Shown here in pieces: positions 11,145 through 50,567 of a DNA stretch of 64,000 nucleotides. Source of the stretch: Alphaproteobacteria bacterium (lineage in GTDB: Bacteria > Pseudomonadota > Alphaproteobacteria > SP197); the NCBI GenBank assembly GCA_965228895.1, contig OZ245842.1, positions 416,001 to 480,000 on the forward strand, written 5' to 3'. The first letter of the stretch is position 1; each line of letters opens with the position of its first letter. The position numbers were made by a program, and so were the translations under genes. The notes beneath the pieces are model-generated. The model saw only the letters and a list, made by a program, of their open reading frames with translations. It was not told the origin of the DNA and searched no databases.

Positions 11145-11172
11145 TGTTTCCATAATGCAGATTATGGCGCCG
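11145..11172. other. dif-like (XerC/XerD-type) recombination site 1
   Basis: TGTTTCCATAA-TGCAGA-TTATGGCGCCG: 11+6+11 layout with the CATAA/TTATG inner dyad of dif; intergenic. Confidence 0.7.
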
Positions 11173-23230: not shown

Positions 23231-23456
23231 CGAACGACATGCGCCTATTCGGAACCAGAATTCCGACAGAACCAATGCGCATTTGGCGTGATTGGATCGG
23301 CCACTGCCAATGCATGCGGACCGTCAATATGATGCCTTAGCATCCTCATTGGCGATGGTATGTTTCCCTGATCCGCTAGATGAAAATCCCTGTTCGCATG
23401 CGTAGGAATTCGTCGCCAAGCTTTCGAAAACACTGCAAAAGCTGGAGCAGGAAGCT

Positions 23457-24632
23457 TGGTATCGGGCACAAATCGCTGAGCCTTTGATTGAGCATCTTGG
23501 CTTCGATCGCCGTCGCGCTTTGGATCGCGCGCGTGAATTGCTTAGCGAACTTGGTATCGCCCGGACTAAGGACGTCGCTTCCGCCTGCCCACACTAGCTC
23601 AGCGGCGGTATGAAGCAGAGGGCGCTGATTGCGGTTGCGCTTAGCTGCGAACCTTCGTTTATCATCCTTGACGAGCCGACGACGGCGTTGGACGTGACAA
23701 TCGAGGCGCAAATCCTCGATATGCTAGCGGACTTGCGGAAACGGCATCACCTAAGTCTGATGTTCATTAGACACAACCTGGCGGTAATACGGCAAGTCTG
23801 CGACAAGGTGTGTGTTCTTTACGCGGGCGAACTCGTGGAGTGGGGCAATGTCGATGAGGTGTTTGACGAACCGTCCCACCCCTACACGAAGGGGCTTCTT
23901 GCATCACTGCCGCGCCTTTCGCCCGAAGCTGAGAAGGAACGCCTGACGTCAATCCCTGGAGGTGTCCCAAGTCTTATCCACGTTCCGCAAGGCTGCATCT
24001 TCGCGTCACGCTGTCCCTATGCTGAACCGGCCTGCCAGGCGCAGGAGCAGTCGTTGCGCGATGTGAGTCCTGAACGCCTATCACGATGCTGGAAGGCGGA
24101 GCAACTGTGGCACCAACCTTGGCCACGCGCGGAGGCCGACAAGGGTGTCGGTGGTGCGCGCTGGACCGGCGACACGCTTGCGGAAGTTGAAGATCTCAGA
24201 AAGGTCTACCGCATCGGCAGCTTCTGGGATCGCCTGAAGCTCAAGCGTACAGAAAGTGGTAGGCTTTCATTCGCAGAACCGCGTCAGATCGTAGCGGTGG
24301 ATCGGGTCTCACTTGAAATCCGTAAAGGCGAGGTGCTTGGCCTCGTTGGTGAGAGCGGGTGCGGAAAGACTACGTTCGGTCGATGCCTCGTTCGCCTGAT
24401 CGAGTCATCGAACGGTCGTGTCGAGTTCGATGGCATGGATGTGCTAGGGGCGAAGCGCGATGGCCTGCGACCTTTCCGACGCAATGCCCAGGTTATCTTT
24501 CAGAACCCAGACTCTTCGCTCAATCCGCGCATGACCATTGAGAACATCATCAGCAGACCACTACGGCTCTTCGATATTGTCGAACCTCACGAAGAACCTC
24601 GTCGCGTGGCTGAGTTGCTTGAGTTGGTCCGT
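23457..24632 (+). pseudogene. Truncated dipeptide/oligopeptide ABC ATPase (fused OppD/OppF-type) pseudogene
   Basis: Frame reads ...AQIAEPLIEH...CPH*LSGGMKQR with an in-frame TAG at 23595-23597 where PHQLSGG is expected. The first Walker A is missing and the second domain (GESGCGKT, QVIFQNP) breaks off after ELLELVR. Confidence 0.85.
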
Positions 24633-35210: not shown

Positions 35211-35356
35211 CTCGAGCCCATGCGTCTCGTTGACGTGGTCATTCCCTGATACCATCCCGAAAATTCCCTCTTCCAGTCCGGGAGCAGGCCATATTTTCCC
35301 TGTTAACAGGGAAATCGCGGCGGAGACGGGTTCGCAGCAGACTGCCCGCACCACCA
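35211..35356 (+). repeat. Copy 1 of a composite direct repeat (16-bp box, 20-bp palindrome, 34-bp core)
   Basis: CTCGAGCCCATGCGTC (35211); perfect palindrome TTTCCCTGTTAACAGGGAAA (35295-35314); core GAGACGGGTTCGCAGCAGACTGCCCGCACCACCA (35323-35356) identical to 47503-47536. Confidence 0.9.
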
Positions 35357-35383
35357 TTTTCCATAATGCAGGTTATGGGGCTC
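35356..35383. other. dif-like recombination site 2
   Basis: ATTTTCCATAA-TGCAGG-TTATGGGGCTC, abutting the 34-bp repeat core. Confidence 0.68.
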
Positions 35384-35442
35384 AAACCGAGCTTGGGTGG
35401 CACCGGGAGTTCTGCCCCTCGCCTTGCTGACCCTTGCGGAGG

Positions 35443-35640
35443 TTAGTGTTCCGGCGTTTGATGGTCTGAATGCCATGGGCGGCCGTCGATCTGGACGCCT
35501 ATGGCGCCATGCCTTTTCACCAAGACCTCAAGATGAATGAGTGCCTCGTGGAGGCATGCAAATGATGTCTCGGTTTCCAGGCTGACGGCATCCACGATAT
35601 CGACACCGCGCGCAGACGCTATGACTTGGTAGCCTTTCAT
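35443..35640 (-). CDS. Small hypothetical protein (65 aa)
   Basis: MKGYQVIASARG... preceded by a GAGG RBS; divergent from dhaK; no recognised motif. Confidence 0.4.
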   Translation of the reverse strand: MKGYQVIASARGVDIVDAVSLETETSFACLHEALIHLEVLVKRHGAIGVQIDGRPWHSDHQTPEH

Positions 35641-35678
35641 GGGGACCTCTCGCAGGACCGGTGCAGCACACTTGACCG

Positions 35679-35707
35679 TAGAGTTTAGTTTAGTAGAGTT
35701 GAGTTTG
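35679..35707. promoter_or_regulatory. Candidate operator upstream of dhaK (GTTTAGTTTA half-site plus degenerate direct repeat)
   Basis: AGAGTTTAGTTTAG...AGAGTTGAGTTTG; the same 10-mer forms the palindrome at 45888-45917. Confidence 0.55.
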
Positions 35708-35801
35708 TTGTGCAACGACACTAGAAAACCCAGTCCGGCTGGGGTTGATTGGCGTTGCCGACTGCTGATGTGGCGTTGCACGGGAGTATGCGGGGGCGGC
35801 C

Positions 35802-36794
35802 ATGAAGAAATTCTTGAATGATGTCGATGACCTGCTTCGTCAAAGCCTGGACGGTTTTGGCGCGGCCCACAGCGGCCTCGTCCAAATTCATCACGAGCCG
35901 ACCTACGTTGTCCGCGCAGGCGGGCCCGTCGCTGGTGAGGTCGCGCTGATTTCCGGCGGCGGTTCGGGGCACGAACCGCTGCACGCCGGTTTTGTCGGCG
36001 CCGGCATGTTGGCGGCGGCCTGTCCCGGCGAGGTCTTCACGTCGCCGACGCCCGACCAGATGCTTGCCGCCGCCGAGGCCGCCGACGGCGGCGCCGGCGT
36101 CCTGTTCATCGTCAAGAACTACTCAGGCGATGTCATGAACTTCGAGATGGCCGCCGAAATGTATGGCGGCGCGTCGGCGACGGTCTTGGTCAATGACGAC
36201 GTCGCGGTCGAAGACTCCTCGTTCACAACCGGCCGTCGCGGCGTGGCGGGCACGGTTGTGGTGGAGAAGATGGTTGGGGCCGCCGCCGCCGCAGGGGCAA
36301 CATTGGAAACGTGCATGATGCTTGGCGAGCGGGTCAACGCGGCGACACGCTCGATCGGTGTGGCACTCACCAGCTGCACTGTTCCAGCAGCAGGGACGCC
36401 GACTTTCGAACTTGGCGACGATGAAGCGGAGATGGGCGTCGGCATTCACGGCGAGCCCGGGCGGCGGCGCATCAAACTGGCGTCGGCGGCGGATCTCGCT
36501 GAAGAAATGATGTCGGCCATTCTTGCAGAGACTCCGGCAGAAAAGGGTGACCCGGTTCTGCTCCTGGCGAACGGCTTCGGCGGCACGCCGCTTATGGAGC
36601 TCTACCTGATGTATCAGGAGGCCCGCCTTCGTTTGGAGGATCGTGGCATTCAGGTCGCGCGCAGCCACGTCGGCAACGTCACGACATCGCTCGAAATGCA
36701 CGGTTGTTCGTTCACGGTAACGGCGCTTGACGACGAGATGACAACTCTTTGGAATGCGCCTGTGCAGACTGCAGCGCTACGCTGGGGCTGTTAG
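35802..36794 (+). CDS. dhaK: Dihydroxyacetone kinase subunit DhaK
   Basis: MKKFLN, SGGGSGHEPLHAGFVG, FTSPTPDQ, KNYSGD, GRRGVAG, GIHGEPG, TSLEM. Confidence 0.95.
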   Translation: MKKFLNDVDDLLRQSLDGFGAAHSGLVQIHHEPTYVVRAGGPVAGEVALISGGGSGHEPLHAGFVGAGMLAAACPGEVFTSPTPDQMLAAAEAADGGAGVLFIVKNYSGDVMNFEMAAEMYGGASATVLVNDDVAVEDSSFTTGRRGVAGTVVVEKMVGAAAAAGATLETCMMLGERVNAATRSIGVALTSCTVPAAGTPTFELGDDEAEMGVGIHGEPGRRRIKLASAADLAEEMMSAILAETPAEKGDPVLLLANGFGGTPLMELYLMYQEARLRLEDRGIQVARSHVGNVTTSLEMHGCSFTVTALDDEMTTLWNAPVQTAALRWGC

Positions 36795-36818
36795 GCCCGC
36801 AGACGCCAGGTTGCGGGC

Positions 36819-37274
36819 TTACTCTTTTTCTATCCGCCGCCTGGCAAGGCCGATCATGCGTTTGGCCGTCTGGCGTATGGAATCTTCGAGTTGCTGCTCG
36901 AGTTCCGGGTCACCCAAGTTGGGCAACATAATCGACATTTGACGGCCGTTGTCGCTGACGCTCCTCTTTGAAGCCGCGCTACCGCTTGCGCCCGCTTTGC
37001 GGTTGGGATGCGCTGCCTGATAGGCAGACAGAAATCGCTGTTTCTCGCTCGGCGACAGATGGCAGACCTTGGCGATAACCGAGACGTCGCCTGCCGGGAT
37101 CGGCACCGGATAGGTCGGGTTGGTGATTTGCGAGACAAAGCTCTTATGTTTGCCGAGCGCCTCGGCGATTTTCTGGCGTGTACCGGACGGTCGCAGGTCG
37201 ACGAGTTCGCGGAGCACGGTCTTGTACTCCCTGACCAGGTCTTCGCGGGACCGCACGTCAGATGTCGAGTTCAT
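36819..37274 (-). CDS. Hypothetical protein with HTH-like segment (candidate regulator)
   Basis: RPSGTRQKIAEALGKHKSFVSQITNP looks like a helix-turn-helix; last gene of the PTS/dha operon. Confidence 0.65.
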   Translation of the reverse strand: MNSTSDVRSREDLVREYKTVLRELVDLRPSGTRQKIAEALGKHKSFVSQITNPTYPVPIPAGDVSVIAKVCHLSPSEKQRFLSAYQAAHPNRKAGASGSAASKRSVSDNGRQMSIMLPNLGDPELEQQLEDSIRQTAKRMIGLARRRIEKE

Positions 37275-38874
37275 GGATAGCGGCCTTGATCGTTCCAAGC
37301 GCGGCCGGTGCGATCGAGAGCGATCGCAGCCCAAGCCCAACGAGATCTGCCAGGCATCTCGGATCCGATCCCATGTCGCCGCACAGACTTACCCCCTTGC
37401 CGTCACGGCGACCATGCTCGACGACCCGGGCGATTAACTCAAGCACGGCGGGATTGCGCGGGTCCTGAAGTGAGCTGAGGCTGGCCTCGTCGCGGCTGGC
37501 TGCCGTCGTGTACTGGATGAGGTCATTGGATCCGATCGAATAGAAATCGGCGTCAAACTCCGCGATGCGCAGGGCGGCTGCGGGCACCTCGACCATGATC
37601 CCGATCGGCGGCAGTCGGTCGGACCGTTCGCCTGACGCCATGGCGGCATGGGTCTCGGTTATCAAACGGCGTGCCTCTTCAAACTCTTCTGGCGCCGTCA
37701 CCATGGGCAGCATGATCCGCATGTCGCCATCAGCTGCGGCACGCAGCATGGCGCGGATTTGGGTTTGAAAGGTCTCGGGACGCTCCAGCGACAAGCGCAA
37801 GCCCCGCACGCCCAGAAACGGGTTCATCTCGCCACTATGGGTCAGACCGGGGATCGGTTTGTCGCCGCCGGCATCCAGTGTACGGAAGATGATCGGTTTG
37901 CCGCGCGACCATGCCATCACCCGATGATACGTGGCGGTCTGCGTGGCCTCATCTGGCAAGGTGCCGCCGTCGTCCAGCTGAAGTTCGGTTCTGACAAGGC
38001 CGCTGCCGTCGCAATGATCGATGTCAATGGCGGGCAGAAGGGCGGGGTCGTCGATGTTGACCAGAACGGCGACCGACGTGCCGCGCCGTGTCGTGGCGGG
38101 CAGCGGCAGGAGCCGGGCCTGCTCGCGCCGGCTCTTGGCCAGGCGGGTAAGACGCTGGTCAAAGTCGCGCTTTGCTTCCGCAGTGGGATCGATCACCAGA
38201 ACGCCCTGTTCGGCATCGACCAAGGCGCATCCGGCGTCTGCGATGGCGGCCTCGGCGGCATCACCAAGGCCGACCAGCATGGGCAGACCGCGCGCGCGCG
38301 CCAGGATGGCGACATGGCTGGTCGCGCTTCCGGCCCGCAAGACAAGGGCCGCCATGCCGTGGGACGCCAGGGCAAGGAAACGCGACGGTGGCATGTCGCT
38401 GGCGATGACAACGTGGCCGGAAACCTTGTCATCGATCGCCGCCGCATGGCCTTGCAAGTGGTCGAGAACACGGTCGCGAAGATCCGCAAGGTCAGCCGCG
38501 CGGGCCCGGAAGTACGCGCTGTCACCGTCTTGATAGATGGCTATCTGGCTACCGAGGGCGTTTGTCCACGCGGTGTCGGCGGCGGTGCCATCGGCGATCT
38601 CCGGATAGGCGGCGGCGGTCAGCTCGTCATCCTCAAGCATGGCGATCTGGAATTCGAGGATTTCCGATGCCAGGTCATCGGCATGCTGTCGAAGGAAATC
38701 CAAGTCACGGACGGCCGCGCCGACGGCGTCTCGCAAGGCGTCCGCCTCGGCGCCGGGCGCCAGGGCTTGCCGGGCTTGACCCTTGCCCCTGGCATCGAGC
38801 CATAGCGGGCCTTTGGCCAGGCCCGGTGAGGCGGCTTGTCCGCTCAGCACGTTAGCCGTCGACCCGCGTTTCAT
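37258..38874 (-). CDS. ptsI: PEP-protein phosphotransferase (Enzyme I)
   Basis: TSHVAILARA (phospho-His), GLVRTE, RTLDAGGDK, NPFLGVRGLR, MVEVP, SIGSNDL, SLCGD. Confidence 0.93.
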   Translation of the reverse strand: MKRGSTANVLSGQAASPGLAKGPLWLDARGKGQARQALAPGAEADALRDAVGAAVRDLDFLRQHADDLASEILEFQIAMLEDDELTAAAYPEIADGTAADTAWTNALGSQIAIYQDGDSAYFRARAADLADLRDRVLDHLQGHAAAIDDKVSGHVVIASDMPPSRFLALASHGMAALVLRAGSATSHVAILARARGLPMLVGLGDAAEAAIADAGCALVDAEQGVLVIDPTAEAKRDFDQRLTRLAKSRREQARLLPLPATTRRGTSVAVLVNIDDPALLPAIDIDHCDGSGLVRTELQLDDGGTLPDEATQTATYHRVMAWSRGKPIIFRTLDAGGDKPIPGLTHSGEMNPFLGVRGLRLSLERPETFQTQIRAMLRAAADGDMRIMLPMVTAPEEFEEARRLITETHAAMASGERSDRLPPIGIMVEVPAAALRIAEFDADFYSIGSNDLIQYTTAASRDEASLSSLQDPRNPAVLELIARVVEHGRRDGKGVSLCGDMGSDPRCLADLVGLGLRSLSIAPAALGTIKAAIHELDI

Positions 38875-39151
38875 CGAAGTCTCTCAGGACGAGGCCGGTC
38901 AATGCCGCAATCGCATCGTCAGCGTCACACCCTTCCGCTCGAATGATCAGAGTTTCGCCGGCCGCGATCTTCAACGCCATGACCTTGACGATGCTCTTGG
39001 CGTCGATCCATCCGGTCTCGTCCGCCTCGGTACGCAGCCTGATGTCGGACTCGAACGTCTTGGCGAGCTTGGTCAGTTTCACCGACGGTCTGGCGTGCAG
39101 GCCGACATCGTGAGTCACACGGACGGATCCTTCGGCATGGCTCGGCGTCAC
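38852..39151 (-). CDS. ptsH: HPr phosphocarrier
   Basis: GLHARP and DAKSI motifs. Confidence 0.93.
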   Translation of the reverse strand: MTPSHAEGSVRVTHDVGLHARPSVKLTKLAKTFESDIRLRTEADETGWIDAKSIVKVMALKIAAGETLIIRAEGCDADDAIAALTGLVLRDFDETRVDG

Positions 39152-39537
39152 GGTGACAGTTCCTCCGCCGTTGCCTTGACATCCTCAAGCGTGGCGTTAC
39201 CCCAGGCTTCGGTTGCCGCCATGACAGCGCCTTCAACGATCGGTGCGTTGCAGATGACGACGCGCTCACGCCATGGTTCCGGCAACATCTCGATGGCCAT
39301 TTCCGAGTTCGTCTCGGCGCCGCCGAGGTCGACCAGAATGGCGACGCCGGCGTCGGAATAGACCGTCTCGATCGCCTGCTTGATCGCGGCGACATCCGTA
39401 CCCAGGCCGCCGTCCGAGTTACCGCCGCACCACGCGACCGGGACTTCGTCGCCGACCATCTGATGCACCATGTCGTGGGCACCGCTGGCGACGCCAGGCG
39501 AATGCGAAACAATAACGATGCCAACTCTGTTACTCAC
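39148..39537 (-). CDS. dhaM: DhaM (stand-alone EIIA-type phosphotransferase subunit)
   Basis: VGIVIVSHS, GGLGT, LVDLGGA, NAPIVEGA. Confidence 0.92.
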   Translation of the reverse strand: MSNRVGIVIVSHSPGVASGAHDMVHQMVGDEVPVAWCGGNSDGGLGTDVAAIKQAIETVYSDAGVAILVDLGGAETNSEMAIEMLPEPWRERVVICNAPIVEGAVMAATEAWGNATLEDVKATAEELSP

Positions 39538-40150
39538 CAGTCTTCCCCTGCACTGCCTGACATACGGCGTGAACCAACAACTGACTTGATCGTGCGCCCG
39601 GATCGAGATGTCCAACCGAGCGCTCGGCCAGAAACGATGCTCGGCCCTTCGTCGCCTGCATGGCGCGAGTCGATTCCAAACCATCGTCGGCTGCCGTTAG
39701 CGCATGGGCCACGGCATCGGCTACGGTTTTCGACTGCTTCAGTGCATCCTCGACCGGACCAAGCACGTCCAGCATGGTTTTCTCGCCACGGTCGGACTTG
39801 CCGCGCGACTTCACGGCATCGACCCCGGCGGTAAAGGCTTGCGTGAACGCTTCGAGTGACAGGGACGAAGCGGGCATGGCCTTGCCCATGGCCATAAGAA
39901 AACTGCCGTAGAGCGGGCCGGATGCACCGCCGACCTTCATGACCAGGGTCATGCCGGCTTTCTGCAGCCCGGCGCTGGGATCCAGGTCGGCCAGGGCATC
40001 GCGTTCGGCGGCGATCGCCTCGAACCCACGCTTCATGTTGAGCCCGTGGTCGCCATCGCCGATCGCCTGGTCGAGCGCCGTCAACTCGTCCGTATGATCG
40101 AGGATGGTGGCGACGCATGCGTCAATCAGCGGTGCGGTAAGGTCAGCCAT
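39530..40150 (-). CDS. dhaL: Dihydroxyacetone kinase subunit DhaL
   Basis: LDQAIGDGDHG, GGASGPLYG, KTMLD, KGRAS, DPGA. Confidence 0.95.
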   Translation of the reverse strand: MADLTAPLIDACVATILDHTDELTALDQAIGDGDHGLNMKRGFEAIAAERDALADLDPSAGLQKAGMTLVMKVGGASGPLYGSFLMAMGKAMPASSLSLEAFTQAFTAGVDAVKSRGKSDRGEKTMLDVLGPVEDALKQSKTVADAVAHALTAADDGLESTRAMQATKGRASFLAERSVGHLDPGARSSQLLVHAVCQAVQGKTGE

Positions 40151-41177
40151 GAGGGCCTCCCGCCGCCTGGCCCGCAAGCCGGGCTCCGTCCTTTGAGAAA
40201 AAGAGCGCCCCGCCCGGCCGAGCCCGCACTGTGACGGGCTGGCCCGGCCGGAACTGCCGGTCAGCCGGTGCCAGGGAGCTGATCGCCTGGTCGGCGAGAC
40301 TGAGCTGGATGACGGTTTCGGCGCCCAGATGCTCGACATGGGTCACGGTCGCCGTGTCGCCGCCGTCGTCGAGGACGACGTCTTCCGGCCGGACGCCCTG
40401 CGTCGCCGTTCCCGACGGCGCCGCGGCACCCAAGCAACCGGCCGGCAGCAGATTGATGCGGGGGGATCCCAGACGGCGCGCCACGTCGATGTTGTCGGGC
40501 TTCTGATAGACCTCCGTCGGCGTTCCGATCTGCACGAGGCGACCTTCCGACAGGACGCCAATCCGATCCGCCAAGGTCATGGCTTCCACCTGATCGTGGG
40601 TGACGTAAAGGATGGTCGCGCCAAGCGAGAGCTGAATACGTTTCAGTTCGATCCTGAGATCGTGGCGCAGCTTCGCGTCGAGCGAGGACAACGGCTCGTC
40701 CATCAGAAATATCGCGGGTTCGCGGACCAGGGCACGGCCGATGGCGACCCGTTGCATCTCACCGCCCGACAGTTTGGTTGCCTTGTTCTCCAGCTTGTTC
40801 TCGATGCGCAGCAGTCCTGCGATCTCGCGAACGCGTCGGTCGATCTCCTTATCGCCCAGACGGCGCAGGGGCGATTTGAGCGGAAACGCCATGTTCTGGT
40901 AGGCGGTGTAGTGGGGGTAGAGCGAATACTGCTGGAACACCATCGCGACGTCGCGCGCGGCGGGATCCGTCGTCGTGATGTCAACGCCTTGGATGGCAAC
41001 GCGGCCACAGTCCGGGCGTTCCAGGCCTGCGACCAAGCGCAAGGTCGTTGTCTTGCCGGCCCCTGTCGGGCCGAGCAGGACGACACATTCGCCGTCCGCA
41101 ATGGTCATCGACATGTCTGCGATGGCGACAGTTTCGTCAAACGTCTTGGTGATTTGGGAGAGCGCTACGTCAGCCAT
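40143..41177 (-). CDS. Carbohydrate ABC ATP-binding protein
   Basis: GPTGAGKTT, LSGGEMQR, DEPLSSLD, THDQ. Confidence 0.93.
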   Translation of the reverse strand: MADVALSQITKTFDETVAIADMSMTIADGECVVLLGPTGAGKTTTLRLVAGLERPDCGRVAIQGVDITTTDPAARDVAMVFQQYSLYPHYTAYQNMAFPLKSPLRRLGDKEIDRRVREIAGLLRIENKLENKATKLSGGEMQRVAIGRALVREPAIFLMDEPLSSLDAKLRHDLRIELKRIQLSLGATILYVTHDQVEAMTLADRIGVLSEGRLVQIGTPTEVYQKPDNIDVARRLGSPRINLLPAGCLGAAAPSGTATQGVRPEDVVLDDGGDTATVTHVEHLGAETVIQLSLADQAISSLAPADRQFRPGQPVTVRARPGGALFFSKDGARLAGQAAGGPHG

Positions 41178-42264
41178 GGCGCCCTCCCGTGTTGGTCAAG
41201 GCCAGGGCTGCTTGCGACTTGGCGTCGAACAACGAGAGCCTTGACGTCAGGAAGTCGAGACCCACGGTGTCGCCAATCCGGGCATCGACCGTGTTGGAGG
41301 CGCGTACGCGCACCCGACCAACATCGGTGTCGACGGCGACGATCTTGCGCGCGCCCGTGTACTCGACGCCGAACACCCGTCCGCGCAGCGCTGCCGAATC
41401 GCTGAGTACGATGTGTTCGGGGCGGGCGCCCAGAATGCCGCTGTCGTGATCCAGGCCGTGTTCAAGGACCGGAACGCTGACATCGGCGCCGGCGACCGAC
41501 ACCTTGTCGCTACCGGGCGCGACGGGTCCGCCAAAGGGCAGCATGTTCATCGGCGGATTGCCGATAAAGTCCGCGACGAAGACGGACGACGGCCGGTCAT
41601 AGACGTCGTTCGGTGTGCCGACCTGCAGGATCTCACCGCCGTTCATGACCGCGACATAGTCACCCATCGACATCGCCTCGACCTGGTCGTGGGTGACATA
41701 AACGGTGGTTGCGCCGATGCGGTCATGAAGCTGCCGCAGCTCCTGACACATGAGATCACGGAACTCGGTATCCAGCGTGCCCAGTGGCTCATCCATCAAA
41801 AATGCCTTGGGCCGGCGGACGATCGCGCGGCCGAGCGCGACCCGTTGACGGTCGCCGCCGGCCAGCTGGCTGGGGCGTGCCTTCAAGAGGTCTTCGATAC
41901 GCAGCAACCGCGCGACTTCCTTGATGCGCTCGGCAATCTCCCGGCGGCTGACGCCCTGCGACTTCAGCGGATAGGCAAGGTTGTTATAGACGTTGAGATG
42001 CGGATAGAGCGCAAAGAGCTGAAAGACAAACGCGATATCGCGCTGTGCGGCACGACGGAACGTTACGTCTTCATCACCCAGGACGATGCGCCCGGACGTC
42101 GGTATCTCAAGTCCGGCGATCATGCGCAGCGTTGTTGTCTTGCCGCAGCCGGACGGCCCGAGCAGCACAAAAAAGCTGCCGTCGGGAATCGTCATGGTCG
42201 AATCCTTGACCGCAACGAACGCGTCGAAGCGTTTGTGCAGGTTCTCGATGCGGATCTGGGCCAT
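41170..42264 (-). CDS. Carbohydrate ABC ATP-binding protein
   Basis: GPSGCGKTT, LAGGDRQR, DEPLGTLD; ATG at 42264. Confidence 0.93.
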   Translation of the reverse strand: MAQIRIENLHKRFDAFVAVKDSTMTIPDGSFFVLLGPSGCGKTTTLRMIAGLEIPTSGRIVLGDEDVTFRRAAQRDIAFVFQLFALYPHLNVYNNLAYPLKSQGVSRREIAERIKEVARLLRIEDLLKARPSQLAGGDRQRVALGRAIVRRPKAFLMDEPLGTLDTEFRDLMCQELRQLHDRIGATTVYVTHDQVEAMSMGDYVAVMNGGEILQVGTPNDVYDRPSSVFVADFIGNPPMNMLPFGGPVAPGSDKVSVAGADVSVPVLEHGLDHDSGILGARPEHIVLSDSAALRGRVFGVEYTGARKIVAVDTDVGRVRVRASNTVDARIGDTVGLDFLTSRLSLFDAKSQAALALTNTGGRHG

Positions 42265-42266
42265 CG

Positions 42267-42467
42267 TCAATCCTTGAAGTGGCTGACGATGACGAAACCC
42301 AGCGTGCCGGTGAGGATGACACCGAAGGAATAGCTGTAGGCCCACATTGAGAACGGTTGCATCAGCATGATGACGCCGGCGGCGATCAATGTCGTTGCCG
42401 CGGCTTCCCATGGTCCGCGTCGGAACAGGCGCCGCGGCCGCGTCTTGTTGGCGTCGCGCCCGCTCAT
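42267..42467 (-). CDS. Small two-TM membrane protein within the ABC operon
   Basis: RRGPWEAAATTLIAAGVIMLMQPF...FGVILTGTLGFVIVSHF; ATGA-coupled to the upstream permease. Confidence 0.75.
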   Translation of the reverse strand: MSGRDANKTRPRRLFRRGPWEAAATTLIAAGVIMLMQPFSMWAYSYSFGVILTGTLGFVIVSHFKD

Positions 42468-43420
42468 TTGCGCACCGCGCCAAAGGTAATGCCGCGCAGC
42501 AGGTGCCGGCGCATGAGGACGGTGAAGAAGACGATCGGCAGCAGGAAGAGCGTCGTGCCCGCGCCGACGGCGGGCCAATCAAGGCCGCCCTCGCCAATGA
42601 TCGTGGGAATGAAGGGCGGCGCCGTTTGCGCCTCGCCGCTGGTCAGCAGCAGCGCAAATGCATACTCGTTCCAGGCGAAGATAAGACAGAAGATCGCCGT
42701 CGCCGCGATGCCCGTCGTCGCCTGGGGCAGAACGATCTTGATAAAGGCCTGGAATCGGCTGTAGCCGTCGATCATGGCGGCTTCCTCGTATTCGGGCGGG
42801 ATCTCGTCAATGAAGCCTTTCAGGAGCCAGACCGCGAGGCTGACGTTGACGGCCGTATAGAGCAAGATCATGCCGAGATGAGTGTCGTTCAGGCCAAGCT
42901 CTCGGTACATCAAGAAGATCGGCACGGCGACGGCAATCGGCGGCATCATGCGTGTCGACAGGATGAAGAACATCAGGTCGTCCTTTAGCGGCACCCGAAA
43001 GCGCGAGAAGCCATAAGCCGCGAGCGTGCCGAGGAAGACGGCAAGGAAAGTCGAGCCAAAGCCGATGATGACGGAGTTGGTGTAACGCTCGGCGAAACGC
43101 GACGGCCCGGTGATCACCATGTTGCGGCTGCGCACCAGTTCCTCATACCAGCTCGACGGCGGCGGCAGGCTTTCCATGTACTCCGGCGTTTGGCGCGACC
43201 GTGTCGTGAAGAGGTTTACGTAGCCTTCCAGCGACGGGTTGAACGTTACTTCCGGCGGGTAGGCGATGGCGTCGGGCGGCGTCTTGAACCCCGTCATCAA
43301 GATCCAGACGAGCGGCACCAAGGCGATAAGGGCATAGGCCGCGACCAAGACACCTGCAACGGTGCGCGACAGGGGGCTGGGTTCGACGACCGAATGTGAC
43401 GTCGAGGCAAAGCGGCTCAT
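42464..43420 (-). CDS. Carbohydrate ABC permease (MalG-like)
   Basis: EEAAMIDGYS EAA loop; FAWNEY. Confidence 0.93.
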   Translation of the reverse strand: MSRFASTSHSVVEPSPLSRTVAGVLVAAYALIALVPLVWILMTGFKTPPDAIAYPPEVTFNPSLEGYVNLFTTRSRQTPEYMESLPPPSSWYEELVRSRNMVITGPSRFAERYTNSVIIGFGSTFLAVFLGTLAAYGFSRFRVPLKDDLMFFILSTRMMPPIAVAVPIFLMYRELGLNDTHLGMILLYTAVNVSLAVWLLKGFIDEIPPEYEEAAMIDGYSRFQAFIKIVLPQATTGIAATAIFCLIFAWNEYAFALLLTSGEAQTAPPFIPTIIGEGGLDWPAVGAGTTLFLLPIVFFTVLMRRHLLRGITFGAVRK

Positions 43421-44373
43421 CGCTGTTTCACCCGGTTAAGGAACTTGACGTAGAGATTGCCGGCCCCGAACACCGTGACAAACAGGATGATGGCAAAGGC
43501 CGAGCTATAGCCGGTTCGCCATTTCTCGAAGGCTTCTCGCTTCAGGTTGATCGACGCCAGTTCCGTCACCGACCCGGGCCCGCCCGACGTCAGCTCCACG
43601 ACGAGGTCGAACATCTTGAAGTTCTCAATGCCCCGGAACAAGACGGCAAGCATCAAGAAGGGCAGGACCATCGGTACGGTGATGGTCCAGAACTGACGCC
43701 AACGCGAGGCCCGGTCGACCTCAGCCGCTTCATAGATATAGTCGGGGATCGACCGCAACCCGGCCAGGCAGATCAGCATCACGTAAGGCGTCCACATCCA
43801 GGTGTCGACCAGAACGATGGCCCAGGGCGCCAGGTTGACATCGCCGATCATGGTGAAGCTGCCGGCGTCGATGAAGAAATTGACGATGTAGTTAAAGATG
43901 CCGGACTGGGGCTGGAAGATATAGGTCCAGAAAACGCCAACGACCGCAGGCGACAGCATCATCGGAAGCAGGATCAGCGTCGTCCAGGTTGCATGACCCT
44001 TGAAGCGGCGGTTGATCAACAGAGCGAGGCCGAATCCGAGGACCACCTGACAGACCATGGTCCAGGTAACGAAGTGCGCGGTCGCCTGCATGTAGCCCCA
44101 GACGTCCTCGCTGCCGAGCAGCCTTTCGTAGTTGCGAAAGCCGACCCACTCGATCTCGCGGCCCGGCTGGTTCGCCCGGTAGTTGGTGAAACTGAGGTAG
44201 ATCGCCCACAGCAGCGGAAAGATGTTGATCGCCAGAAGCAGGCCGATGGTCGGCAGAATAAAAACCCAGGCCAGGGCCCTGTCGCCCATCCCACGCACAC
44301 GGATGCCACGCCCGGGAAGCGTTGCTGTCGCTGCTGTTGTGGTCGTGCTCTGGGACATGTGGGATTGAGCCAT
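43417..44373 (-). CDS. Carbohydrate ABC permease (MalF-like)
   Basis: YEAAEVDRAS EAA loop; WMWTPY; GGPG. Confidence 0.93.
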   Translation of the reverse strand: MAQSHMSQSTTTTAATATLPGRGIRVRGMGDRALAWVFILPTIGLLLAINIFPLLWAIYLSFTNYRANQPGREIEWVGFRNYERLLGSEDVWGYMQATAHFVTWTMVCQVVLGFGLALLINRRFKGHATWTTLILLPMMLSPAVVGVFWTYIFQPQSGIFNYIVNFFIDAGSFTMIGDVNLAPWAIVLVDTWMWTPYVMLICLAGLRSIPDYIYEAAEVDRASRWRQFWTITVPMVLPFLMLAVLFRGIENFKMFDLVVELTSGGPGSVTELASINLKREAFEKWRTGYSSAFAIILFVTVFGAGNLYVKFLNRVKQR

Positions 44374-44466
44374 CTGCTGGCTTGGATACTAAAGGGATCA
44401 AAAAAATATGGTCGACCGGACCGGAGACGTGGTCCGGCCGACCAGGTTGGTTGCGACGGCGGGAGA

Positions 44467-45792
44467 CTAAATCTTACCGTCGTCTTCGAACACTTCGGTC
44501 CAGTCATCAACGAGCTTGTCGAGCGCTTCCTGGGCCGTACCTTGATCGGCCACGACATAGTCGTGAACCCGCTTCTGCATGGATTGCAGCAATTCGGCGT
44601 ATGTTGGTTCTTGCCAGAAATCCTGTACGCTACTCATGGCCACCAGGAAGTCGGAAGCGAACGGCGCGCTGCCGGCAAAGCTGGGGTCTTCGAGCACCGA
44701 CAGACGGCATGAGTAACCGCCAAGGGACCACCACTTCTGCTGCACTTCCGGCTTGGCAAACCACTTGATGTACTCAAGCGCCATGTCCTGTTTGTCGGAA
44801 TAGGCGACGACGGAGATCCCCTGTCCGCCGAGCGTTGACGCCTCGACGTTCTGGGCGGGATTGACGAAGAAACCCGACTTGTCACCGCCGACATCTTCGT
44901 CCTTGGCGATACCGGGGAAGAAAGCGAACCAATTCATCTGCATCGCCACCTGGCCGGACTTGTAGGCGTCCAGATTGGCAACCATGTAGGCGTCGGAATG
45001 CCCCGGAGGTGTGCAGCACTCATAGAGTTCCTTGTAGAACGACAGGGCTTCGACAGCGGCCGGGCCATTGACATAACCGCCCATATCATAGGGCCGCTCG
45101 GGATTGTCGTACTCCATGCCCCAGGCATACATCGCCGACGTCACGCCCATGGTAATGCCTTCGGAACCGCGTTCGGTGTAAAGACCCATGCCGTAGACGG
45201 TCTTGCCGTCGATCTCGCGGCCCTGGAAGAACTTGCCGATATCCATCAGCTGGTTCCAGTTCGCCGGCGGCGCGAGGTCATAGCCATACTCGCTCTTGAA
45301 GGCTTCCTGAAGCTCGGGCCGCTCGAACCAGTCCTTGCGGTAGACCCAGCCCAGCGCGTCGCCCATGGCCGGCAGCGCCCAATAGCTCGGCTCGCCCTTT
45401 GGCCATGTCGAATAGGCGTACACCGTGGCCGGCAGGAAGTCGTCCATCGAGATATCGTTCTCGACAAAGAAATCGGTGAGCTCGATGTAGTGACCATAGG
45501 TGGCCGAACCGCCGAGCCACTGGCTGTCACCAATCAACAGATCGCAGAGCTTACCGCCCGAGTTCAATTCGTTCAGAAAGCGATCCGCGAAGTTCGTCCA
45601 CGGAACAAACTCGAACTTCATGGCGATGCCCGACTCGGCCGTAAAGTCTTTCGACAGTTCAGCCAGCGCGTTGGCCGGATCCCAGGCCGCCCAACATAAC
45701 GTCAGTTCTTGATCCTGTGCCTGGGCCGTCGTGCCGCCCATGAGACCGGCCGCGACCGCGGCGGCAGCACAGATTTGTGCCAGTTTTCGCAT
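44467..45792 (-). CDS. Carbohydrate/polyol ABC substrate-binding protein
   Basis: Signal peptide (AQAQ); GDSQW; FKSEYGYDLAPP; LGGQG; GGAGG RBS. Confidence 0.92.
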   Translation of the reverse strand: MRKLAQICAAAAVAAGLMGGTTAQAQDQELTLCWAAWDPANALAELSKDFTAESGIAMKFEFVPWTNFADRFLNELNSGGKLCDLLIGDSQWLGGSATYGHYIELTDFFVENDISMDDFLPATVYAYSTWPKGEPSYWALPAMGDALGWVYRKDWFERPELQEAFKSEYGYDLAPPANWNQLMDIGKFFQGREIDGKTVYGMGLYTERGSEGITMGVTSAMYAWGMEYDNPERPYDMGGYVNGPAAVEALSFYKELYECCTPPGHSDAYMVANLDAYKSGQVAMQMNWFAFFPGIAKDEDVGGDKSGFFVNPAQNVEASTLGGQGISVVAYSDKQDMALEYIKWFAKPEVQQKWWSLGGYSCRLSVLEDPSFAGSAPFASDFLVAMSSVQDFWQEPTYAELLQSMQKRVHDYVVADQGTAQEALDKLVDDWTEVFEDDGKI

Positions 45793-45887
45793 TGCTTCAC
45801 CTCCCAAATTCTGAGTTCGCGTTGCGTCGATGTTGGTGCCGACCGACAGCCGGTCGGATAAGACCACCCCACGTATTCTTGCTCTTG

Positions 45888-45917
45888 GTTTAGTTTATTG
45901 TTTTGACTAAACTAAAC
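45888..45917. promoter_or_regulatory. Perfect inverted repeat GTTTAGTTTA-N10-TAAACTAAAC in the divergent promoter
   Basis: AT-rich dyad between the binding-protein and amidohydrolase starts. Confidence 0.7.
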
Positions 45918-46010
45918 TTCTGTCAAGCGCGATCTATCTGCTGCAGCGCACCAAATCGATGTTGCAGCGCAACAAACCGAGCGAATCAAAGCAACGTGGA
46001 GGACGTCGTG

Positions 46011-47291
46011 ATGTCGGGAACATTCATTCATAACGCCAGGATCATTGATGCCAGCGGCGACGAGCCGTTCTTGGGATCGGTCCAGATCCGCGGCAACCGT
46101 ATCGCCGCGATCCACCACGGCATCGAAGGCAAAGCCGGCGCCGGCGACAAGTCAATCGACGCCGGTGGCGCCACACTGATGCCCGGCCTGATCGAGGCGC
46201 ACGCGCATATCTCGTTCTGCGATACACCGACCCTGGAAGACCTCGGCGACATCCCGCCGGAAGAGCACACGCTCGAGACCATGAAGTTCGCGCGCAAGAT
46301 GCTGGATCAGGGTTTCACTTCGTTGTTCAGCGCGGCGGCGGCCAAACCCCGCCTGGATGTCGTCATCCGCAATGCGATCGAAGCCGGTGACATTCCGGGG
46401 CCGCGCATGCGTGCGGCCAGCCCTGAGCTGACGGTCACCGGCGGGCTGGGTGATGTCAGGCGCCGTCACATTCATCGCGAGACCTTCGCGATCTGCTGCG
46501 ACGGCGTCGACGAGTTTCGCCGCACCGCGCGCGAGATGTGCCGCGAGGGCGTCGATACCTTGAAGATCAATCCGTCGGGCGACGAGTTCATCCCGTTCGC
46601 CCGGGCGCACTTGACCGTCATGAACGAAGACGAGATCGCCGCCGTGTGCGAGGTCGGCAAGTCGCGCGGCAAAATGGTCGCGGTCCACGCCCGGTCGGCG
46701 CTCAGCGTCAAGCTTTGCCTGAAGCACGGCGCCGATGTGATTTACCACGCCAGCCTCAGTGACGACGAAGCGCTCGATATGCTGGAAGCACATAAGGACG
46801 AGATCTTCGTCGCCCCAGCAATGGGCATTATGTTCGCGACGTCGCAGGGTGAGGGCGCGGCCTGGGGGCTGACCAAGGACAGCGACGTCGCCATGCATTT
46901 CGCCCGCGAACTCGAGCGCTGCGTCGAGAACATGAAAGAACTCGCCAAGCGCGGCGTGCGCATCCTGCCGGGCGGCGATTACGGCTTTGCCTGGAACCCC
47001 ATCGGCACCAATGCCCGCGATCTCGAACACTTCGTCAACCTGCTCGACTTTACACCGATGCAGGCGATCCAGTCATGCTGTGCCCATGGCGGCGCGTTGA
47101 TGGGATTGCCTGGAGAGCTGGGCCAGATTCGCGAGAGCTGGCTCGCCGATCTCGTCCTGATTGACGGCGATCCGCTGAAGGACATCCGGCTTCTACAGGA
47201 CGCCGACAAGTTCTTGGGCATCATGAAGGACGGGAAGTTCCACAAAGATCCCTCGATCGCCGCGACACGGTCCACTGAGGTCGCCGCATAG
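46011..47291 (+). CDS. Metal-dependent amidohydrolase (prolidase-like subgroup)
   Basis: MPGLIEAHAH (HxH), LKI, VAVHA, IYHA, GGDYG, ADLVLIDGDPL. Confidence 0.9.
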   Translation: MSGTFIHNARIIDASGDEPFLGSVQIRGNRIAAIHHGIEGKAGAGDKSIDAGGATLMPGLIEAHAHISFCDTPTLEDLGDIPPEEHTLETMKFARKMLDQGFTSLFSAAAAKPRLDVVIRNAIEAGDIPGPRMRAASPELTVTGGLGDVRRRHIHRETFAICCDGVDEFRRTAREMCREGVDTLKINPSGDEFIPFARAHLTVMNEDEIAAVCEVGKSRGKMVAVHARSALSVKLCLKHGADVIYHASLSDDEALDMLEAHKDEIFVAPAMGIMFATSQGEGAAWGLTKDSDVAMHFARELERCVENMKELAKRGVRILPGGDYGFAWNPIGTNARDLEHFVNLLDFTPMQAIQSCCAHGGALMGLPGELGQIRESWLADLVLIDGDPLKDIRLLQDADKFLGIMKDGKFHKDPSIAATRSTEVAA

Positions 47292-47344
47292 CGTCGCACC
47301 AACGGGCAACGCCGATCGATGACTAGGCTGGGCCGTTACGCTTT

Positions 47345-47536
47345 CTCGAGCCAATGCGTCCGGCCCGTTCCCTGTTCATACGCGTAGGGAAGTTGTTTCT
47401 AAGTCACCGGTTCGGGTCAGTTATGTGGTAGCTCAGCGTGTGAAGAGTGACTGATCTGGCAGAAGTTCCCTGCATTCTCCCTGTTAACAGCGAAGTTCGG
47501 CAGAGACGGGTTCGCAGCAGACTGCCCGCACCACCA
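47345..47536 (+). repeat. Copy 2 of the composite direct repeat
   Basis: CTCGAGCCAATGCGTC (47345), TTCCCTG boxes, TCCCTGTTAACAGCGAA, and the 34-bp core at 47503-47536 identical to 35323-35356. Confidence 0.9.
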
Positions 47537-47563
47537 CTTGCTAGAATGCAGATTATGACGCCG
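47536..47563. other. dif-like recombination site 3 (left arm degenerate)
   Basis: ACTTGCTAGAA-TGCAGA-TTATGACGCCG; right arm differs by 1 nt from site 1. Confidence 0.6.
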
Positions 47564-48266: not shown

Positions 48267-48275
48267 CGAAGACCG

Positions 48276-50539: not shown

Positions 50540-50567
50540 GTTTCCCATAATGCAGATCACGCGACCA
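50540..50567. other. dif-like recombination site 4 (right arm degenerate)
   Basis: GTTTCCCATAA-TGCAGA-TCACGCGACCA; same spacer and orientation as sites 1-3. Confidence 0.58.

Follow-up and report, generated by a model that had tools for sequence, protein, structure and literature searches.

The 12.2-kb DhaK/DhaL/PTS/ABC module, which is bracketed by identical 34-mers with a dif-like site after each, is one of a long series of cassettes that lies downstream of a tRNA-Met gene. The reading that we prefer, with a probability of roughly 0.5, is that the module is a recombinase-less cassette of a composite tRNA-Met island, the joints of which consist of an arm of the large serine recombinase (LSR) type and a Xer-type site, and that it is moved by the host XerC and XerD recombinases (XerCD). 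The new feature is the fusion of an LSR-island end to a dif-like site. The module lies in a window of 64,000 nucleotides, in which genes were called heuristically as open reading frames picked by GC3. The genome containing this window, termed G000, was compared with two congeners, G001 and G002, giving a genus sample of three genomes, two of which are drafts.

The DHA cassette and its two junctions

The cargo of the cassette (35384..47293, both strands), as identified by Pfam, comprises DhaK (35802-36794) and an amidohydrolase (45903-47291) on the plus strand and, on the minus strand, a PTS EI-like protein (37258-38874), HPr (38852-39151), EIIA-Man (39148-39684), DhaL (39530-40339), two ABC ATPases (40143-41177 and 41170-42597), two permeases (42464-43420 and 43417-44373) and a binding protein (44467-45867). 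The Pfam scan, which covered the window genes between 20.8 and 55.1 kb, produced zero recombinase or transposase family matches in the module, in agreement with the earlier note, which had described a unit carrying no mobility gene.

As that note had claimed, the window contains exactly two copies of the 34-mer (35323-35356 and 47503-47536); both are on the plus strand, and 0 of 100 shuffled windows contained any match. A dif-like site with an 11-6-11 layout directly follows each copy, again as proposed. The left junction repeat (35211..35356, plus strand; nhmmer match at genome 451292-451389, E 1.9e-32) contains two distal TTCCCTG-type boxes, a 20-bp palindrome and the first 34-mer. Alignment with the copy at genome 4251579 revealed that it is a ~280-bp unit with an internal deletion, and it belongs to the cassette on its left. 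The left dif-like core (35356..35383, plus strand) comprises the XerD-type arm ATTTTCCATAA, the centre TGCAGG and the XerC-type arm TTATGGGGCTC, the last conserved in its inner 5 nt only, such that the conserved part reads ATTTTCCATAA TGCAGG TTATG (35356-35377). The right junction repeat (47294..47536, plus strand; nhmmer E 1.8e-65) is a full unit, with a distal box and an inverted box (TTCCCTGTTCATACGCGTAGGGAA), a spacer, proximal boxes and the second 34-mer. It is orthologous to the unit at G002 contig C4 110059-110268 and, because it travels with the cargo on its left, constitutes the DHA cassette's own end. The right dif-like core (47536..47563, plus strand) consists of the XerD-type arm ACTTGCTAGAA, the centre TGCAGA and the XerC-type arm TTATGACGCCG, with ACTTGCTAGAA TGCAGA TTATG at 47536-47557, and just past it a GACGCC/GGCGTC hairpin extends up to 47574 (GACGCCGACAAGGCGTC, 47558-47574). 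The right XerD-type arm is degenerate (7/11), and this copy may therefore be inactive.

The smaller elements previously described were largely recovered. TTCCCTG boxes are present in both copies, and the 16-bp box CTCGAGCC[C/A]ATGCGTC is found at window positions 35211 and 47345, with no match elsewhere in the genome at ≤1 mismatch. The dyad said to precede each copy is a perfect 20-bp palindrome, TTTCCCTGTTAACAGGGAAA, in copy 1 only, while in copy 2 (CCCTGTTAACAG) its right half is broken. The general proposal that the repeat is a multi-part recombination site or element end is supported.

Repeat units and cassette arrays

The ~280-bp repeat family has 18 copies or fragments in the genome (nhmmer, E ≤ 1e-3), of which 13 lie on the plus strand between 345 kb and 935 kb, in the right replichore, and 5 on the minus strand at 4.21-4.25 Mb, in the left replichore. 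Downstream of tRNA-Met and tRNA-Ser(gga) lie two arrays, each with its members co-oriented, which span 0.35-0.56 Mb and 4.21-4.30 Mb at a distance of ~0.8-1 Mb from the origin. Among 20 matches to the dif-like pattern, all 18 sites with a TGCAGA-type centre fall in these two arrays, the remaining 2 being at the terminus, and within each array all dif-like sites are co-oriented. The earlier note had set an island end against a common dispersed repeat or one lacking any empty-site allele; every copy lies in a tRNA-anchored island, and alleles with and without the insertion were found. The cassettes measure 1-35 kb and carry mostly metabolic operons.

Three further members of the array are located in the window, all on the plus strand. 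A bare dif-like site at 11145..11166 (genome 427145; 2 mismatches to the 22-mer) forms a cassette joint with no box and 34-mer unit on its left, a remnant of the box region of a unit lies at 23349..23479 (genome 439349-439479, E 9.9e-12, profile positions 40-170 only), and a degenerate bare dif-like site at 50540..50561 (genome 466540; 4 mismatches) ends a 3-kb segment that follows the DHA cassette and encodes LspA, SHOCT, cytochrome c, CDF and MerR proteins. In total, four bare dif-like sites lack a P-type arm on the left.

Comparison with G002 revealed that contig C4 110393-122385 matches window positions 35292-47291 with 84% identity over 12 kb, flanked by unrelated DNA on both sides. The order in G002 is tRNA-Met, a dif-like site, cassette A, a unit with its dif-like site and the DHA cassette, whereas in G000 cassettes A and DHA are 51.6 kb apart. 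The same cassette thus lies between different neighbours in a congener, and cassettes therefore reassort at the junctions; parentage switches somewhere in the stretch that starts at the NNNN of the 34-mer and closes with the dif-like core, at a resolution of ~45 bp. The notion of an excisable unit bounded by the repeats stands in so far as the module is discrete and recurs with other neighbours on both sides, but the repeats are joints of an array and not the two ends of one island.

The difference in presence and absence between G000 and G002 could also result from homologous recombination between direct repeats of 100-280 bp. More generally, the units might be inactive relics of old integrations, subject to RecA-dependent recombination and deletion, with no site-specific enzyme acting on them now. 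Consistent with such scars, the units are 75-88% identical, several are truncated or degenerate, the XerD-type arm of the right junction retains 7/11 positions, the parentage switch is placed no finer than ~45 bp, and the contigs, which break at repeats, contain no joint. However, the boxes, the 34-mer, the XerD arm and the centre are kept among 12 units from two species of the genus while the spacers diverge, which argues for continued selection on the sites. Conservation stops sharply at TTATG in all copies, and the bare dif-like sites keep the arm and the centre without flanking homology that recombination could use. We consider inactive scars improbable.

The arm as the end of serine recombinase islands

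The 34-mer has the consensus GAGACGGGTTCGC-NNNN-GACTGC-NNN-CNCC-R-CCA, with two clusters of 7-bp boxes upstream. A 23-nt pattern of the unit is present at more than 122 loci in many phyla among the matches listed, and the box layout is conserved across the loci of other genomes. Among the same matches, the box and 34-mer units of other phyla occur without the dif-like part, which was found in this genus alone. A converging LSR gene lies 269-1926 bp past the CCA end at 7 of the 20 loci fetched from two of these genomes (G043 and G044), and an LSR gene also accompanies the unit at one of three loci of a third (G030). In G000, all three LSRs of this family, which share 43-54% identity with unit-linked LSRs from other genomes, are located 236-303 bp from the 3' ends of tRNA-Met, tRNA-Ser(cga) and tRNA-Ser(gga). 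At tRNA-Ser(cga), G000 carries an island of 59,149 bp, distinct from the DHA cassette, with the 34-mer at its far end; in the empty site of G002 the same tRNA gene directly abuts the DNA that follows this 34-mer (934783) in G000, revealing a precise insertion. The box and 34-mer part is the conserved right end of LSR islands inserted at tRNA 3' ends, and we read the 34-mer as the putative P half-site of an LSR attP. The earlier suggestion that the boxes are accessory sequences of the cer/psi type was not borne out, as they belong to the LSR-island end and flank the XerD side.

In a sequence comparison with tRNA-Met, CTGCC of the 34-mer appears at the same distance from CCA (CTGCC, 10 nt and the end) and GGTTCG 3 nt further out, and the R of CC-R-CCA seems to track the tRNA discriminator base. 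The likeness of GGTTCG...CCACCA to a tRNA 3' end is real, but its interpretation as a decayed tRNA is not retained: ARAGORN identified 0 tRNA genes in the window, Rfam produced no match at gathering, and, since the unit is an LSR-island end with an empty tRNA-Ser site in a congener, the tRNA-like appearance is probably that of an attachment-site mimic. The same motif, together with the strong sequence conservation across phyla, might suggest that the 34-mer region is an RNA gene, such as a tRNA pseudogene, a tRNA-like small RNA or a guide RNA scaffold. This is hardly credible given the ARAGORN and Rfam results (best Rfam hit, a chance-level hairpin ribozyme, E 0.073); in addition, RNAalifold found 2 invariant pairs and zero covariation in 49 sequences, and where the right half of the palindrome is conserved, its left half is not.

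With its two clusters of 7-bp boxes and its sharp end in CA, the repeat also recalls DDE-type transposons of the Tn7/Mu-like kind, whose termini carry transposase-binding boxes just inside a ...CA-3' tip, and in a Vicinamibacterales genome the motif lies within a ~780-bp element that has box-bearing terminal inverted repeats and is present in 82 copies. In that element, however, the motif is internal and not terminal. The arrays have no inverted partner end, their box clusters occupying one strand only in each, Pfam identified no transposase among the window genes between 20.8 and 55.1 kb (most other cassettes of G000 were covered by all-against-all BLAST), and the recurrent neighbour is an LSR. 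A transposon terminus is thus a very unlikely explanation.

As the unit is clearly an LSR-island end, the arrays could instead have been built and rearranged by LSRs alone, acting in trans in the manner of SCC, with the dif likeness convergent or irrelevant and the dif-like stretch representing the right half-site of a sub-lineage. Insertion at the tRNA-proximal site would make each internal joint a P(new) half joined to a P'(old) half, and tandem elements of this kind would account for the units of G044, G043 and G030 that have P' and an LSR immediately behind them. An LSR element of G000 sits precisely at the boundary of tRNA-Met and the first dif-like site, which implies that the dif-like stretch served as the right half of the LSR target. 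The nearest named NCBIfam relatives of the LSRs, although far below cut-offs, are Ccr recombinases (CcrB/XisF), the enzymes that assemble composite SCC islands, in which some elements lack ccr. Against LSRs as sole agents, none of the ~19 cassettes with a dif-like left end in G000 and G002 carries an LSR, and the LSR-bearing elements display a different P' (CyAGTC-type). The recombinase family PF07508 was not found in G002 (97% complete) or G001, and there was no LSR across 80 kb of the G002 array and no recombinase in the DHA cassette. Equally difficult for this reading are the bare dif-like sites, an 11/11 host XerD arm with exact 6-bp spacing and CATAA, which would hardly arise by chance, and the direct repetition of identical sites, since LSRs select attP x attB pairs and identical sites in direct repeat are not their normal substrates. 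We regard an origin through LSRs alone as rather unlikely.

Attachment sites of large serine integrases (A118/LI, Bxb1, phiC31) have bipartite half-sites with two conserved blocks and a variable linker, as does the unit described here. As in these systems and SCC, the recombinase gene here adjoins P' and insertion is precise relative to the empty site, and SCC composite islands likewise contain tandem elements, recombinase-less ones included. In contrast, the target here is a tRNA 3' end, the P arm bears a long box array, in this genus a dif-type site either takes the place of the right half-site or serves as both, and no LSR is encoded in the cassettes.

The Xer-type core and its proposed use

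The true dif of G000, AAGTCGCATAA TATATA TTATGGAAAAT, is located at 2268576, near the skew maximum (2.34 Mb). Its XerD arm corresponds to ATTTTCCATAA of the repeat at 11/11 positions, in both the consensus and copy 1. The dif-like sites retain the exact 6-bp spacing, with a centre (TGCAGA) that differs from TATATA, and only the inner 5/11 nt of their XerC arm are conserved. The dif of G002 shares this XerD arm (TTATGGAAAAT) and the centre of the true dif, under a pattern that covered the inner 4 nt of the XerC arm. Host candidates are a XerD-like gene (323.6 bits with the NCBIfam XerD model, cut-off 329.6), which passes the subfamily model NF001399, and a XerC-like gene (318.2 bits, cut-off 335.15). 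Two further tyrosine recombinases of the genome are far from the arrays. An integron cassette array was also considered and rejected, as none of these four tyrosine recombinases, the only ones in the genome, lies near the arrays and the repeats have no attC-like fold.

By its sequence, the dif-like core looks made for the host Xer recombinases. In the mechanism that we propose, each joint would comprise the right end of an LSR island (boxes and 34-mer) and, directly after CCA, a 28-bp Xer-type site. XerC and XerD would cut cassettes out as circles and re-insert them at co-oriented, identical dif-like cores, with the limits of the DHA cassette running from the crossover in the left site to that in the right (~12.18 kb). 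The distinct centre would keep cassette sites from recombining with dif, and use of host XerCD would explain why the ~19 cassettes all lack a recombinase of their own. The LSR-type arm would be an inherited but still conserved component, with candidate roles in LSR docking, regulation or as a Xer accessory sequence. Host XerCD is the favoured enzyme, with an LSR in trans or homologous recombination as alternatives. Several observations weigh against it: the contigs show no circle or deletion joint, breaking as they do at repeats; the sites lie ~0.8-1 Mb from the origin instead of near the terminus, and Xer recombinases normally need special activation to act outside dif; TTTCC follows CCA in the tRNA-Ser(cga) LSR target sites too, so that some of the "XerD arm" may represent a motif of an LSR half-site; and CTGC-N22-GCAG, symmetric about the CCA/TTTT joint, also fits a serine-recombinase site. 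A tentative extension is that a recombinase swap took place in this one marine alphaproteobacterial genus, in which the integrase-proximal half-site of an LSR island was exchanged for a host Xer core, the cassettes moving via XerCD and the old arm persisting on the XerD side in an accessory or controlling role. If this were true, recombinase-free cassettes of 1-35 kb with whole metabolic operons, in co-oriented arrays of up to ~240 kb, would represent a chromosomal counterpart, with large cassettes, of integrons and pdif modules.

Integrative elements exploiting Xer (IMEXs), such as CTXphi, VGJphi, TLCphi and the gonococcal island, have no integrase, employ host XerCD and carry a dif-like site of which one arm is good and the other poor; the cassettes likewise have such a site and no integrase, and would likewise depend on XerCD. 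IMEXs, however, integrate at the chromosomal dif, at the terminus, and an assignment to this class was rejected: dif is at 2.27 Mb and the arrays, with their different centre, lie at tRNA genes. The cer and psi sites, which act on direct repeats, also combine a Xer core with ~200 bp of flanking protein-binding DNA, but their accessory sequences flank the XerC side and bind PepA, ArgR and ArcA (10.64898/2026.02.23.706985). A site of this type was discarded because here it is the XerD side that bears the conserved flank, while conservation extends no further than the inner XerC arm; moreover, the flank is common to LSR islands without a Xer core.

Prochlorococcus tycheposons, according to the portion of the report consulted, are tRNA-anchored islands in which successive integrations push older elements outward, elements being separated by partial tRNA copies and remnants scattered through the islands, and their cargo consists of nutrient-uptake and defence genes (10.1101/2020.12.28.424599). 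The growth of the present arrays appears similar. Tyrosine integrases and true partial tRNA copies are the rule among tycheposons, 27 of 937 having a large serine recombinase, and that portion describes no Xer-type core or box arrays, unlike those found here (10.1101/2020.12.28.424599). In Acinetobacter, dif modules are recombinase-less genes that stand in rows between 28-bp sites of the XerC/XerD type, neighbouring sites alternating between C/D and D/C, and are mostly 1-5 kb with resistance or toxin-antitoxin genes on plasmids (PMC12907356, PMC6449649). The present cassettes resemble them in these recombinase-less rows, in the occurrence of the same module in different contexts and in a conservation that is stronger on the XerD than on the XerC side. 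Classification as Acinetobacter-type pdif modules was rejected, since the alternating orientation is absent and all sites here are direct repeats; the cassettes are also larger and mostly metabolic, the array is tRNA-anchored, and most sites bear a ~250-bp LSR-type arm on the XerD side.

Organisation of the repeats bracketing the DHA-kinase module

Exactly two copies of the 34-mer GAGACGGGTTCGCAGCAGACTGCCCGCACCACCA are present in the window (35323 and 47503), both on the + strand, and no match to it was obtained in shuffled sequences (0/100). Upstream of each copy lie TTCCCTG boxes and a CCCTGTTAACAG dyad, which forms a perfect 20-bp palindrome at copy 1 only, and a dif-like site lies downstream. 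A 16-bp box, CTCGAGCC[C/A]ATGCGTC, lies further upstream of both copies and was not found elsewhere in the source genome (G000) at up to one mismatch. The arrangement described in the earlier note is thus confirmed. The 12.2-kb segment between the two copies encodes DhaK, a PTS EI-like protein, HPr, EIIA-Man, DhaL, two ABC ATPases, two permeases, a binding protein and an amidohydrolase; among these genes, called in the window as heuristic GC3-based ORF picks, no match to recombinase or transposase families was observed. The accompanying proposal, a composite recombination site bounding a unit without mobility genes, largely holds and is reframed here, the repeat marking the points at which cassettes join in an array anchored at a tRNA gene. 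It is a composite structure, comprising upstream the end of a serine-recombinase island and downstream a genus-specific Xer-type core.

When the single 5.53-Mb contig of G000, of which the window covers positions 416001-480000, was searched with a profile of six full-length copies of the repeat, 18 copies or fragments of the unit were identified at E <= 1e-3, 13 at 345-935 kb (+ strand) and five at 4.21-4.25 Mb (- strand). The full unit spans ~280 bp and displays a sharp end at ...ATGCAGATTATG. Searching with the dif-like 22-mer (up to four mismatches) identified 20 sites, 14 at 345-562 kb (+ strand), four at 4.22-4.30 Mb (- strand) and two near the terminus. Adjacent dif-like sites are separated by 1.2 to 35 kb, and the DHA module therefore constitutes one segment in a row of ~14. 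The full unit is absent to the left of six array sites: those at genome positions 383037, 402642, 427147 and 466542 lack any unit sequence, that at 345427 follows the end of an element carrying a large serine recombinase (LSR) at tRNA-Met, and that at 366730 has a mere 34-mer remnant to its left. Two units (genome 526996-527068 and 4251534-4251612) display a nested end, in which ...CACCGCCA TTCTCC.. is followed by a second short remnant ending in CCA and then by the dif-like core, and which looks like insertion of an element into the end of an earlier unit.

By cumulative GC skew, replication starts near 5.04 Mb and terminates near 2.34 Mb; the two arrays thus occupy opposite replichores, at ~0.8-1 Mb from the origin in each case and in mirrored orientation. 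The arrays at 345-562 kb and 4.21-4.30 Mb are thus mirror images about the replication origin, with the XerD-type arm on the origin side in both, such that a terminus-bound translocase would meet XerD first. Alternatively, the mirroring could reflect tRNA genes co-oriented with replication, together with symmetric inversion.

The box and 34-mer part and its serine recombinase

Among 41 relatives searched, the unit was found in the congeners G001 and G002 and in one genome of another family (G030), where the repeat stops directly after ...CCGCCA and carries no dif-like part; a further genome (G005) holds only a 37-nt piece of the 34-mer (E 1.5e-5). A wide scan of one genome per species with the pattern GAGACRGGTTCGCNNNRGACTGC matched at least 122 loci, and the matches listed include Alphaproteobacteria, Acidobacteriota, Nitrosomonadaceae, Burkholderiales, Gemmatimonadaceae, Chloroflexota and others; at none of the loci listed do the 80 nt past the motif contain an ATAA-N6-TTAT site. 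The conserved architecture comprises a distal cluster at -220 to -120, with direct boxes and one inverted box, and a proximal set at -60 to -20, with a direct box pair and one inverted box, next to which lies the 34-mer ending in CCA. The sequence of the boxes varies, being CGTGTTC in the tRNA-Ser(cga) island, whose 34-mer is retained, and CCGGGAT in a Vicinamibacterales genome with 82 motif copies. A blastn search of a plasmid collection with the unit gave no match.

Several identities for the unit were rejected. An RNA gene was ruled out, searches having yielded no tRNA, tmRNA or Rfam family and 49 sequences having shown neither a consensus structure nor covariation. A coding region was likewise rejected, since the reverse frame M-V-V-R-A-V-C-C-E-P-V-S... 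closes after ~32 codons and the copies differ by indels. A two-ended transposon was ruled out for G000 by the absence of inverted box clusters, and a large shared element in G030 by its three near-identical copies, which have just 202-371 bp in common. In the Vicinamibacterales MAG (G041) the 82 motif copies often form inverted pairs a few kb apart, and a ~780-bp MITE-like element (locus L147, 799-1578), with 88-bp terminal inverted repeats of four CCGGGAT boxes, carries the same 23-nt motif internally. At ~459,436 of G030 (junction of loci L141 and L142), an IS with a DDE_Tnp_1_4 transposase begins exactly at the CCA boundary of a unit, a placement that could be fortuitous or reflect preferential targeting of the site.

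The enzyme linked to the box and 34-mer part is an LSR. A Resolvase-Recombinase protein of 511-656 aa is the single recurrent neighbour of the unit, present at 7 of 20 loci in two other genomes (G043 and G044), its gene lying 269-1926 bp past the CCA end and converging on it; the same arrangement is observed at one of the three unit copies of G030, and a ParB-N6-methylase gene is frequent on the box side. G000 encodes four LSRs, three of which belong to the unit-linked family (43-54% identity to other members), and each of the three terminates at a distance of 236-303 bp from a tRNA 3' end, namely that of tRNA-Met (321892-321968), tRNA-Ser(cga) (875546-875634) and tRNA-Ser(gga) (4310749-4310838). 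DUF3489 precedes the LSR in all three elements, and DUF2924 also does so in those at tRNA-Met and tRNA-Ser(gga), whose LSR genes span 322271-324067 and 4308780-4310513, respectively. DUF3489, DUF2924 and a 290-aa protein encoded beside the unit of the tRNA-Ser island are candidates for binding the boxes. In G002, tRNA-Ser(cga) joins directly to DNA that in G000 comes after the 34-mer copy at 934750-934783. This empty site reveals that a 59,149-bp island, with the LSR at the tRNA end and the 34-mer at the opposite end, was inserted in G000 exactly after the CCA of the tRNA. Targeting of tRNA 3' ends is usually credited to tyrosine integrases. Among LSR systems, the att sites of serine integrases and the composite SCC islands come closest.

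We read the 34-mer as a putative P half-site, one half of the attP of the LSR, a reading that also draws on the general organisation of LSR attachment sites. Two conserved blocks are joined by a free 4-nt linker, the CTGCC-to-CCA distance is the same as in tRNA-Met with GGTTCG 3 nt further out, and the base preceding CCA tracks the discriminator of the target tRNA. A half-site of this type would account for the tRNA-like look of the 34-mer, which had earlier been noted as reminiscent of a decayed tRNA 3' end; the likeness stands, with no tRNA or Rfam match, and probably belongs to the attachment site. The 34-mer and its box arrays provide a short, phylum-spanning signature by which the ends of a large family of serine-recombinase islands, targeted to tRNA 3' ends, can be recognised and the islands themselves delimited, whether in genomes or in MAGs. 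The 59-kb tRNA-Ser(cga) island also encodes a Piwi-domain (prokaryotic Argonaute-like) protein (locus L209, 12667-15093; genome 888166-890592), whose gene adjoins a PD-(D/E)XK nuclease and an HTH regulator.

Anchoring of the arrays and cassette order in the congeners

The tRNA-Met at which the first array starts is an integration hot spot, being present in 28 of 33 family genomes with different downstream DNA in nearly all. The array of G002 (contig C4) begins at the orthologous tRNA-Met, where CCA is followed by CCTC and a dif-like site, and the flank upstream of this tRNA is syntenic with that of G000. In G000, a 23-kb LSR element separates the tRNA from the first dif-like site (345427) and carries genes for the LSR, DUF2924, DUF3489, a large terminase, DUF5681, a ParB-methylase and defence-type functions. 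At locus L207, 471-6816 (genome 322271-328616), the terminase, DUF5681 and ParB-methylase genes lie beside DUF3489-DUF2924-LSR with no capsid genes seen, a satellite-like gene set that is followed by RES, PIN, a UvrD-type helicase and a STAND NTPase. The second array is directed at tRNA-Ser(gga).

Positions 110393-122385 of G002 C4 and 35292-47291 of the window share 84% identity over 12 kb, and this likeness is absent to the left of the left unit and beyond ~20 bp past the right dif-like core. The order in G002 is tRNA-Met, dif-like site, a cassette termed A, unit with dif-like site, DHA cassette, unit with dif-like site and unrelated DNA. Cassette A corresponds to G000 383520-399798, which is separated from the DHA cassette of that genome by 51.6 kb that hold three further dif-bounded segments. 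No empty-site allele of the DHA cassette alone was found, its left and right neighbour cassettes in G000 being absent from G001 and G002. The DHA module thus behaves as a cassette, with the same cargo and different neighbours in a congener. Three-way alignment of the joint between A and the DHA cassette in G002 revealed that the box region is orthologous to the unit ending A and the post-core DNA to the beginning of the DHA cassette. Parentage changes within the interval delimited by the NNNN of the 34-mer and the far edge of the dif-like core, as finely as 84% identity allows the point to be placed. This means that the unit travels with the cargo to its left and that exchange takes place in or next to the core. 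The segments after the DHA cassette (window 47730-55124) encode LspA, SHOCT, cytochrome c, CDF, two MerR proteins, an HMA chaperone and a P-type ATPase, a metal-handling set of which several genes have paralogues in the second array; a degenerate dif-like site (50540) closes the first 3 kb.

The Xer-type core and the enzymes that may move the cassettes

The best dif candidate of G000, AAGTCGCATAA TATATA TTATGGAAAAT, is located at 2268576, near the skew maximum, and the repeat core reads nnnnnnCATAA TCTGCA TTATGGAAAAT on the opposite strand. The XerD arms of repeat and dif are identical (11/11) and the spacing is exactly 6 bp, while the centre differs and the XerC arm keeps only its inner 5 nt, where conservation stops. 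At the DHA cassette, the XerD arm is perfect at copy 1 and degenerate (7/11) at copy 2. G000 encodes XerD-like and XerC-like proteins, both slightly below NCBIfam equivalog cut-offs, and just two other tyrosine recombinases, both distant from the arrays. The conserved ~250-bp flank of the core lies on the XerD side, the opposite of the cer/psi layout, and the suggestion of cer/psi-like accessory boxes is therefore abandoned. No accessory unit was identified at the true dif, which comes directly after the stop codon of a gene.

The host Xer system is favoured as the activity that would act on the cassettes. Xer action would explain why the XerD arm is perfect, why the spacing is 6 bp and the non-dif centre shared, why bare dif-like sites exist and why recombinase genes are absent, none being present in the ~19 cassettes of G000 and G002. 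Action of the LSR only remains as a rival: the unit itself originates from LSR islands, the G000 LSR element inserted at a tRNA-Met|dif-like target, the CCA of the tRNA-Ser target is likewise followed by TTTCC, and CTGC-N22-GCAG is symmetric about the joint. Against this rival, LSR genes were not found in G002 (97% complete) or in G001. The fourth, unrelated LSR of G000 (4292693-4294255), located by a bare dif-like site, was rejected as the cassette enzyme; used as a query it gave no match in G002, G001 or a further genome (G045), and thus cannot explain the G002 array. Homologous recombination between repeats could also have produced the genome differences. Across 12 units from two species the boxes, 34-mer, arm and centre are conserved and the spacers variable, a pattern that argues for sites still under selection. 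Four of the five public runs listed provide contigs only, which end at repeats, none joining 35.3 to 47.5 kb, and are uninformative on excision.

The nearest Xer analogue is provided by the Acinetobacter dif/pdif modules, including chromosomal "dif module islands", whose sites alternate in orientation and for which neither a tRNA anchor nor a long flank is described (PMC12907356). The nearest ecological analogue is the Prochlorococcus tycheposon islands (bioRxiv 10.1101/2020.12.28.424599). In literature searches of limited coverage, neither a site fusing an LSR arm to a Xer core, nor Xer-type cassette arrays at alphaproteobacterial tRNA genes, nor the 34-mer itself was found to have been described. 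If large cassettes are indeed moved by Xer, much of the flexible genome of these marine bacteria, including genes for sugar and peptide uptake, resistance to metals and defence, could be exchangeable without an element-encoded recombinase, and such exchange would be invisible to integrase-seeking tools. The fusion of a serine-recombinase arm to a Xer core would also offer a test substrate for two unrelated recombination systems sharing one site. A second site with both arms of dif (AAGTCGCATAA ... TTATGGAAAAT) and the centre GCTACA is found at genome 2598514-2598541, 330 kb from dif and in the same orientation, and could represent the far end of a large Xer-integrated terminus element.
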